64,000 nucleotides of DNA from Escherichia coli 042. GTDB lineage: Bacteria; Pseudomonadota; Gammaproteobacteria; Enterobacterales; Enterobacteriaceae. The stretch lies in NCBI RefSeq assembly GCF_000027125.1, contig NC_017626.1; one strand, given 5' to 3'. Of this stretch, positions 2,201 through 2,383 are shown piece after piece (within the stretch, counting starts at the first letter, position 1; each line of letters begins with the position of its first letter). Both the position numbers and the translations under genes were made by a program. The notes below the pieces were generated by a model that was given only the letters and a program-made list of their open reading frames with translations, did no database searches and was not told where the DNA came from.

Positions 2201-2383
2201 ATGATCATGCTGATTCTCGCGCCTCTGGTGGGCGTGCTGGGTGCGCTTTTGCTGGCATATGGTGCCTGGCTGATTTATCCCCCGGCGGGTTTTGTTGTTG
2301 CCGGGGCGCTGTGCCTGTTCTGGTCGTGGCTGGTGGCGCGATATCTCGATCGTACACAGCTGTCTGTCGGCGGAGGTAAATAG
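2201..2383 (+). CDS. Small hydrophobic protein (two predicted TM segments), unknown function
   Basis: 60-aa [31 protein letters not shown]... wedged between terminase and portal. Confidence 0.35.

Follow-up and report, generated by a model that had tools for sequence, protein, structure and literature searches.

In phage lambda the gene between the large terminase and the portal encodes gpW, a soluble protein of about 68 amino acids. Other small phage proteins reside in the inner membrane: T4 Imm and HK97 gp15 exclude superinfecting phage, and class II holins such as S21 span the membrane twice, with both termini in the cytoplasm and a charged C-terminal tail. The heads of HK97-type phages are believed to be built unattached in the cytoplasm, a process for which no membrane is known to be required. 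In T4 the gene for gp40 does not adjoin that of the portal. Portal assembly in T4 uses a membrane-bound initiator that depends on gp40 (PMC9958956). A literature search for small membrane proteins encoded between terminase and portal returned only generic sentences on holins or unrelated gene insertions.

The closest described relative of the gene studied here is ymfR of Escherichia coli K-12, part of the e14 prophage. In the literature searched, ymfR was found only in gene lists, in one table of SOS-related transcripts and in one use as an integration site. In the transcript table, a drug that induces SOS raises ymfR mRNA (log2 fold-change 4.5; PMC10012262) along with that of other e14 genes. 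As an integration site in K-12 the gene was treated as neutral, and no deletion phenotype was reported (PMC9145139), which says little because e14 is defective.

We analysed a window of 64,000 nucleotides from E. coli 042 (contig NC_017626.1), in which a 60-codon open reading frame, hereafter the micro-ORF, lies between the genes of the large terminase subunit (TerL) and the portal. By sequence comparison we show that it is a genuine protein-coding gene, orthologous to ymfR of e14. Like gpW, its product is small, of comparable size, and encoded between large terminase and portal; unlike gpW, it is a predicted hydrophobic hairpin (grand average of hydropathy, GRAVY, 1.29) and has no match to the gpW family of Pfam. 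With class II holins it shares two transmembrane (TM) segments, a charged C-terminal tail and, as deduced from the positive-inside rule, an N-in/C-in layout, but its gene lies outside any lysis cassette. It resembles these holins, Imm and gp15 in being a small predicted inner-membrane protein, yet matches none of their families. With gp40 the likeness, that of a viral factor tied to portal assembly at the inner membrane, is by analogy alone.

A small gene fills the terminase-portal junction

The micro-ORF was located from the open-reading-frame listing and by reading the sequence. It starts with ATG, 11 nt past the TerL stop codon, and wholly occupies the gap between TerL and the portal. The head module of the window is arranged as follows:

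139-459, + strand: small terminase subunit (TerS), P27 family (PF05119 Terminase_4, E=1.7e-21; RefSeq annotation of a collinear record)
456-2189, + strand: TerL, large terminase subunit (PF03354 and PF20441; stop codon TAA at 2187-2189)
2192-2196, + strand: Shine-Dalgarno motif GAGGT of the micro-ORF, 4 nt before its ATG (sequence; GAGG-like motifs at the equivalent position in relatives)
2201-2383, + strand: ymfR homologue, predicted 60-amino-acid two-TM inner-membrane micro-protein of PHROG 502 (open reading frame, phrog_502 match, identity with K-12 YmfR, RefSeq ymfR, purifying selection)
2372-2376, + strand: Shine-Dalgarno motif GGAGG of the portal, within the last codons of the micro-ORF (sequence)
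2381-2385, + strand: TAGTG, in which the micro-ORF stop TAG (2381-2383) overlaps the portal start GTG (2383-2385), a putative translational coupling junction (sequence)
2383-3624, + strand: portal protein with GTG start (PF04860, E=2.6e-108)
3602-4252, + strand: HK97-family prohead protease (open reading frame; RefSeq annotation of a collinear record, 651 nt)
4267-5472, + strand: HK97-type major capsid protein (open reading frame; RefSeq annotation)

The micro-ORF is already catalogued, as ymfR and as PHROG 502, and is no new kind of element. The window protein is identical at 59 of 60 positions to K-12 YmfR (b1150), and residues 1-55 match phrog_502, a 'membrane protein' profile, with E=1.5e-27. 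In RefSeq the gene goes by the name 'ymfR: protein YmfR', also in strain CFSAN061770, whose copy is 100% identical to that of the window; b1150 itself is labelled 'IPR020297 domain-containing protein YmfR'. Searches of Pfam, NCBIfam, PADLOC and the PDB sequence set gave no significant match for the window protein, the only Pfam signal being a sub-threshold one to TctB.

The K-12 copy has the same length, the same 5' Shine-Dalgarno motif and the same 3' junction. It is preceded by aaaE, what is left of a terminase gene, and beeE, a portal remnant, begins at its stop codon. The two loci differ in that the flanking terminase and portal genes are pseudogenes in e14, whereas they are intact in the window, which carries an SfII/SfIV-like prophage. 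Of the 5426 complete E. coli genomes searched by megablast with positions 2150-2450, about a quarter (1361) carry the ymfR region.

Phage records name the gene inconsistently. It is a 'putative integral membrane protein' in phiP27 (L37), SfII and 118970_sal3, Sb3 in ST64B and a 'hypothetical protein' in phi467 and SfI; in the records of SfIV and PY54 the gene is present and unannotated. Several records label it 'head-tail joining protein W', since its size and position resemble those of gpW, and this label appears to be positional and unsupported. A tblastn search of the phage collection was of poor sensitivity, as the low-complexity filter masked helix 1 and left a coverage of 57%.

The reading frame is under purifying selection

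Substitution rates were estimated from pairings of the window with two phages, phiP27 and phi467, and with three diverged prophages in which the protein has 58-63% identity. Over the whole micro-ORF the diverged pairs differ by 0.23-0.29 nonsynonymous and 0.56-0.75 synonymous changes per site, the latter close to saturation. The Jukes-Cantor-corrected dN/dS of about 0.18-0.30 indicates purifying selection; TerL and portal are held more tightly (0.02-0.09).

This signal is specific to one frame. Among the six sequences compared, the 2201-2383 frame on the + strand is the only one open in all, and an antisense frame of 78 amino acids that covers the micro-ORF in the window is broken by one to three stop codons in the three diverged relatives. 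Four of the five other frames gave pN/pS around or above 1. The fifth, antisense frame -1, gave 0.47-0.59; its third codon positions coincide with those of the sense frame, whose signal it is therefore expected to echo. A codon-usage model built from TerL, portal and capsid likewise favoured the micro-ORF frame, with a log-likelihood of +15.4 against -18.6 and -25.4 for the other two + frames.

Against phiP27 the micro-ORF has a dS of only 0.08, compared with 0.85-1.97 for the flanking genes. Constraint at the nucleotide level was considered as a cause and rejected, as the sliding identity profile reveals a mosaic patch at window positions 2130-2550. The patch takes in the end of TerL, the micro-ORF and the first 170 nt of the portal gene, and is due to recombination.

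The initial annotation had described a gene for a hydrophobic 60-residue protein with two TM segments between terminase and portal, and the frame at 2201-2383, the GRAVY of 1.29 and the hairpin predicted by AlphaFold2 bear this out. It was also right in placing the gene inside a head-morphogenesis block, which here comprises TerS, TerL, portal, protease and capsid genes. The annotation had left room for a spurious frame in a GC-rich spacer. Such a reading could appeal to the shortness and hydrophobicity of the protein, to the lack of a Pfam or NCBIfam model and to the several phage records that omit the gene. It is refuted by the frame-specific selection, by the codon usage, which had been proposed as a check, and by the homologues; with a conserved length, a Shine-Dalgarno motif of its own, and 166 close and 378 distant clusters of relatives (see below), we give it next to no probability. 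The spacer itself does not exist, because the micro-ORF fills the whole gap, and its base composition is hardly unusual: its GC is 0.59 and that of the flanking genes 0.54-0.56, and GC at third codon positions (GC3) is 0.62, compared with 0.63-0.68 next to it.

Predicted architecture of the protein

Hydropathy analysis of the window protein shows two hydrophobic stretches. AlphaFold2 (AF2), run with an alignment of 48 sequences, predicts a helical hairpin with helices at residues 2-25 and 27-56 and a mean pLDDT of 81. Together with the sequences of 48 diverse family members, these predictions divide the gene as follows:

2204-2275, + strand: predicted transmembrane helix 1, codons 2-25, with G14 and G21 invariant in the family (AF2, hydropathy, 48 diverse members)
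2276-2290, + strand: YPPAG turn, an uncharged loop, codons 26-30 (helix break at residue 26; conserved motif; loop free of charge in 39 of 48 members)
2291-2338, + strand: predicted transmembrane helix 2, codons 31-46, with invariant G35 and a small-residue stripe G30/A34/C38/S42 (alignments, AF2, hydropathy)
2339-2380, + strand: predicted basic cytoplasmic tail, codons 47-60, evolving almost neutrally (pN/pS of tail and core; charge)

Charged residues are almost confined to the C-terminal tail. Averaged over the family, the tail carries a net charge of +1.2 and the loop almost none; the tail of the window protein is weakly charged, at net +2. Based on this distribution and the positive-inside rule, we infer an N-in/C-in topology in which the five-residue YPPAG turn would be the sole periplasmic part. 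YmfR presumably acts at the membrane.

The family core motif reads G..G...(S)(Y/F)GAWL(I/V)YPPAG(F/Y)I..G, with an additional CLxWS core, and the window protein fits it. G14, G21 and G35 are invariant across the 48-member sample. In the diverged pairs, pN/pS is 0.18-0.30 over codons 1-46 and 0.63-1.06 over codons 47-60. Codon comparisons thus show that selection acts on the predicted intramembrane core, where the PPAG turn and the three invariant glycines lie, rather than on the predicted cytoplasmic tail.

The gene is inherited with the portal gene

In every enterobacterial relative the gene order is HNH-TerS-TerL-micro-ORF-portal-protease-capsid, and the stop codon of the micro-ORF overlaps the portal start. 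A profile of the family, searched against 1.84 billion cluster representatives, returned 378 clusters (50% identity) at E<=0.001, almost all of 45-80 amino acids. Close homologues make up 166 clusters, almost all of similar length. Named carriers of distant members include Marinobacter and Neptuniibacter. All six of these contexts that were read show the order TerL-micro-ORF-portal. In the four distant contigs fetched, the micro-ORF overlaps or abuts both TerL and a PF04860 portal gene, with either an S78 or an S49 protease. Wherever the context of a family member was read, the gene stands directly before a PF04860 portal gene.

The micro-ORF follows the portal gene rather than TerL in its divergence. 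Mantel tests over 12 enterobacterial loci gave r=0.72 (p=2e-4) between micro-ORF and portal distances and r=-0.01 (p=0.46) between micro-ORF and TerL distances. Over 15 loci, the partial correlation of micro-ORF and portal given TerL was 0.83, and that of micro-ORF and TerL given portal was 0.12. Individual recombinants agree with this: phi467 and the L004 locus have a very different TerL (pN 0.43), yet a micro-ORF and portal like those of the window, while SfV carries the window type of TerL until about position 2108, after which micro-ORF and portal are both switched.

We then surveyed 80 viral contigs that had been retrieved with a portal alignment. Where the portal shares 68% identity or more with that of the window, the micro-ORF is always present (30 of 30 contigs). 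A conservation check put forward with the initial annotation was whether close relatives lose the frame while keeping the flanking genes; the frame is kept in these 30, with the tail frameshifted in one of them (L029), where TerL is also truncated. In five loci with portals 59-65% identical the micro-ORF is absent and TerL abuts the portal gene with a gap of 3-14 nt. In seven more distant loci a two-TM micro-ORF again stands immediately before the portal gene. Four of these seven (L066, L072, L073 and L077) carry 460-1170 nt of other genes between TerL and the micro-ORF, which still adjoins the portal gene.

The gene is, in this survey, patchy at depth and fixed within lineages. It is accessory and not required by the portal family, because sister portal lineages do without it. 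Portal proteins encoded without a micro-ORF have no compensating hydrophobic segment at the N-terminus, and portal N-termini are alike with or without it. The carriers vary in their tails, the window having a sheathed tail and the L004 locus one of siphovirus type. These comparisons show that micro-ORF and portal gene are inherited as one unit, whatever the TerL, the protease (S78 or S49) or the tail type.

One reading of the micro-ORF would make it a cis-acting coupling frame, whose translation sets that of the portal and whose peptide is incidental. Most of the family junctions listed combine a GGAG-type motif in the last codons with a TAGTG, TGATG or TAATG overlap of stop and start. The portal of the window starts with GTG, and the recurrent G/E-rich C-termini of the micro-proteins (GG-E/D/K) are explained by the portal Shine-Dalgarno sequence that lies there. 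However, a pure coupling frame would not retain a two-TM hairpin, whereas here the core is under purifying selection, the glycines are invariant in 48 members and the family extends over about 378 clusters. Sister phages, moreover, translate the portal straight after TerL. We therefore regard an incidental peptide as most unlikely.

Other families in the same position

The switched segment of Shigella phage SfV contains an unannotated two-TM frame of 53 amino acids between TerL and portal (L002, 2289-2450). It occupies the same position as the micro-ORF, its start lying at the TerL stop (ATGA), and its product likewise combines two hydrophobic stretches with a basic tail; on the other hand, it lacks both YPPAG and CLxWSW, and the portal alongside is just 28% identical. 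The frame ends 11 nt inside what is probably the true portal start. From the sequence, the likely start of the SfV portal is GTG 2440 and not the annotated 2392: GTG 2440 is preceded by AGGGGG and aligns with the N-termini of other portals.

The SfV frame matches phrog_7105 with E=3.2e-22 and phrog_502 with E=5.7e-6, and the window frame matches phrog_7105 with E=0.022; such HMMER cross-scores between the two families may be inflated by hydrophobic composition. Two metagenomic members (L052 and L065) match both HMMs. A direct hhalign comparison of the YmfR and SfV-type families was weak (probability 3.8%, E=0.011). Distant homology of the two families is probable, though unproven.

In Streptococcus thermophilus phage Sfi21, orf59c (DUF1056, PF06341) encodes 59 amino acids with two hydrophobic stretches and a GRAVY of 1.25. 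Flanked by TerL and portal, it is the x of a TerS-TerL-x-portal-protease-MCP module. It differs from the micro-ORF in its Gram-positive host and in the 17-nt gap, without overlap, that separates it from the portal gene. No homology was detected: hhalign of YmfR against orf59c gave a probability of 0.3%, and neither the window protein nor any of the 48 YmfR-family members matches PF06341. The resemblance of DUF1056 to YmfR is positional and architectural only. DUF1056 was not found in the literature searched.

Moron-like features and expression signals

The initial annotation had proposed that the gene could be a moron acting at the membrane, for example in superinfection exclusion. A moron expressed in the lysogen for the benefit of the host would agree with the filing of phrog_502 in PHROGs under 'moron, auxiliary metabolic gene and host takeover', and with e14 of K-12, which keeps ymfR intact next to pseudogenes of terminase and portal. 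The intact copy may, however, merely reflect a recent decay of e14, since it is 59/60 identical to that of the window.

The structure of the locus speaks against a moron. Consensus scans found no sigma-70-like promoter on the + strand within 500 nt upstream of the micro-ORF and no + strand terminator downstream of it; the gene forms part of the late head operon. Its GC, GC3 and codon usage are like those of the flanking genes, with no compositional shift. The gene keeps strict synteny and an overlap with the portal gene, in a fixed position with coupled portal translation over deep divergence. In K-12 it is SOS-induced alongside other e14 genes, and a search of the window protein against the defence models of PADLOC-DB returned no family at E<=1. 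The moron proposal is thus unsupported, and we consider a lysogen-expressed host-benefit function very unlikely.

A 'rho-independent terminator' is annotated inside the SfII copy of the gene. The equivalent RNA of the window folds at -18.8 kcal/mol, no better than shuffled sequences (z=0.16), and we rejected it as a terminator.

On the comparative evidence it is highly probable that the micro-ORF is a real gene, a member of the YmfR family, linked to the portal gene and not a moron in its structure.

Possible functions of YmfR

We tentatively propose, by analogy with the gp40-dependent portal initiator of T4 and with less than even confidence, that YmfR is an accessory factor of the head module which couples initiation of the portal ring or procapsid, or the packaging complex, to the cytoplasmic membrane. 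YmfR would be translated together with the portal from the late head operon during lytic growth. It would act inside the inner membrane, either oligomerised or bound to a partner there, and would help portal or procapsid initiation or packaging. Its help would be useful and dispensable, because sister portal lineages lack the gene.

Several observations sit poorly with such coupling. The tail is the only part exposed to the cytoplasm on which the portal could dock, yet it evolves almost neutrally. Portals 59-65% identical to that of the window manage without the micro-ORF, and portal N-termini are the same regardless of its presence. Co-inheritance with the portal gene may, moreover, stem from the physical overlap of the genes and not from a shared function. 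Co-translational tethering of the mRNA to the membrane was considered and set aside, on reasoning only, as a protein of 60 amino acids is nearly complete before its first helix exits the ribosome.

A selection pattern in which the membrane core is constrained and the cytoplasmic tail is not would suit a late membrane-active accessory protein unrelated to head assembly, namely a holin- or antiholin-like modulator of lysis timing, a pore-forming or depolarising peptide, or a late block to superinfection. The position before the portal gene would then merely set a low, portal-like level of expression. The architecture is that of class II holins, with about 60 amino acids, two TM segments, a putative N-in/C-in topology and a short basic C-tail. 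Glycine and small-residue stripes conserved in both helices suggest helix packing or oligomerisation, and the gene is dispensable in sister lineages. Against this, Pfam, PHROGs and PADLOC contain no holin, Imm or Sie match, and none of the holin families in Pfam and PHROGs matched the window protein or its 48 relatives. The lysis cassettes of the relatives lie elsewhere, upstream of HNH-TerS, and differ in type (holin_8/holin_3_7 with GH108, GH19 or GH24), so that the micro-ORF does not co-vary with the lysis system; nor does it with tail type. A late membrane-active protein of this kind would also leave three sequence families in one pre-portal position unexplained. We regard it as somewhat unlikely.

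Extending the proposed membrane coupling to all three families, the YmfR-type, SfV-type and DUF1056 micro-proteins would together form a recurrent, unrecognised accessory of HK97-type head modules, in which a two-TM hairpin of roughly 60 amino acids, made in synchrony with the portal, links DNA packaging, or else the initiation of portal ring or procapsid, to the cytoplasmic membrane. We hold this broader proposal to be rather improbable.

The analysis exposes errors of annotation: the gene is missing from the records of SfV, SfIV and PY54, that of SfV probably misplaces the portal start, and several records bear the 'W' label, which appears unsupported. For a protein encoded by roughly one in four complete E. 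coli genomes, as well as by serotype-converting Shigella phages, the linkage to the portal provides a concrete hypothesis. The recurrence of two-TM micro-ORFs at the same position in SfV and Sfi21 hints at a general but optional function beside the portal. If the coupling to the membrane is true, the picture of HK97-type head assembly would change.

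Sequence signals in and across the micro-ORF

Comparison of the window with phage phiP27 reveals a patch of about 420 nt (window 2130-2550) that is 92–98% identical, as opposed to 58–87% in the surrounding region. This patch, which runs from the 3' end of TerL across the ymfR-homologous micro-ORF and 170 nt into the portal gene, is the result of mosaic recombination. The micro-ORF is also spanned on the opposite strand:

2186-2422, minus strand: antisense ORF of 78 aa covering the entire micro-ORF

The antisense ORF is not conserved, because 1-3 stops break its frame in the diverged prophage relatives L004-L006. 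In SfII (KC736978), a 'putative rho-independent terminator' is annotated within the micro-ORF at 2370-2419 (window ~2209-2258); the corresponding window RNA is no more stably folded than its shuffled versions (z=0.16), and we rejected this candidate.

Among the close relatives, only L029 (IMGVR_UViG_2896607866_000012, 2820-3035) differs in the micro-ORF frame: a frameshift past codon ~52 changes the tail and makes the product 71 aa long. The TerL ORF of this locus is truncated as well, and either this prophage is decaying or the sequence was misassembled.

Annotation of the locus in related phages

In ON470603, ON470584, ON470580 and PQ793804 the ymfR homologue is named 'head-tail joining protein W', a label apparently carried over from lambda on the basis of position. 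No gpW family match was found for the homologue, and it is predicted to be a membrane hairpin. It is left unannotated in SfIV (KC814930/NC_022749) and PY54.

The TerL-portal gap of SfV (U82619.2) likewise holds an unannotated 53-aa two-TM ORF (2289-2450), which matches phrog_7105 (E=3.2e-22). The portal, as annotated from GTG 2392, overruns this ORF. GTG 2440, which is preceded by AGGGGG, is the better-fitting start, agreeing more closely with other portal N-termini.

By position and architecture, YmfR resembles Sfi21 orf59c (NC_000872, 2424-2603; DUF1056, 59 aa, two hydrophobic stretches), which occupies the TerL-portal slot of a Gram-positive HK97-type head module, although the two share no sequence similarity. 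A separate record, OR844959.1 ('Enterococcus phage Efm 3-10', 1764 bp), is attributed to an Enterococcus faecium phage; it is 93% identical to the TerL-ymfR region of this E. coli/Shigella prophage, and is probably contamination or mislabelling.

Segments differing from CFSAN061770

Between ybhL and ybhN lies an island of ~2.5 kb (window 35465-38030), seemingly low in GC, which is missing from the otherwise collinear E. coli strain CFSAN061770. Its ORFs include the following:

36109-36498: ORF matching DUF3969
37078-37704: ORF matching a SUKH-4 immunity protein

A 156-aa island ORF had no match. Two ORFs lying next to each other, 35322-35648 and 35673-36062, resemble one split gene, and the latter, the one scanned, matches Bax1-I. 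The segment may be an orphan immunity-gene island.

Collinearity is also lost at 9536-12210, a divergent allele that maps to the genes for tail tape measure and tail assembly, and at 18742-20307, where the prophage gtr cluster differs in its third gene:

18835-20310, minus strand: third gtr-cluster gene, 491 aa, adjoining gtrA/gtrB homologues

This 491-aa ORF has no Pfam match and presumably encodes the serotype-specific O-antigen glucosyltransferase. The window prophage is a serotype-converting element of the SfII/SfIV-like type, adjoining ybhB-bio.
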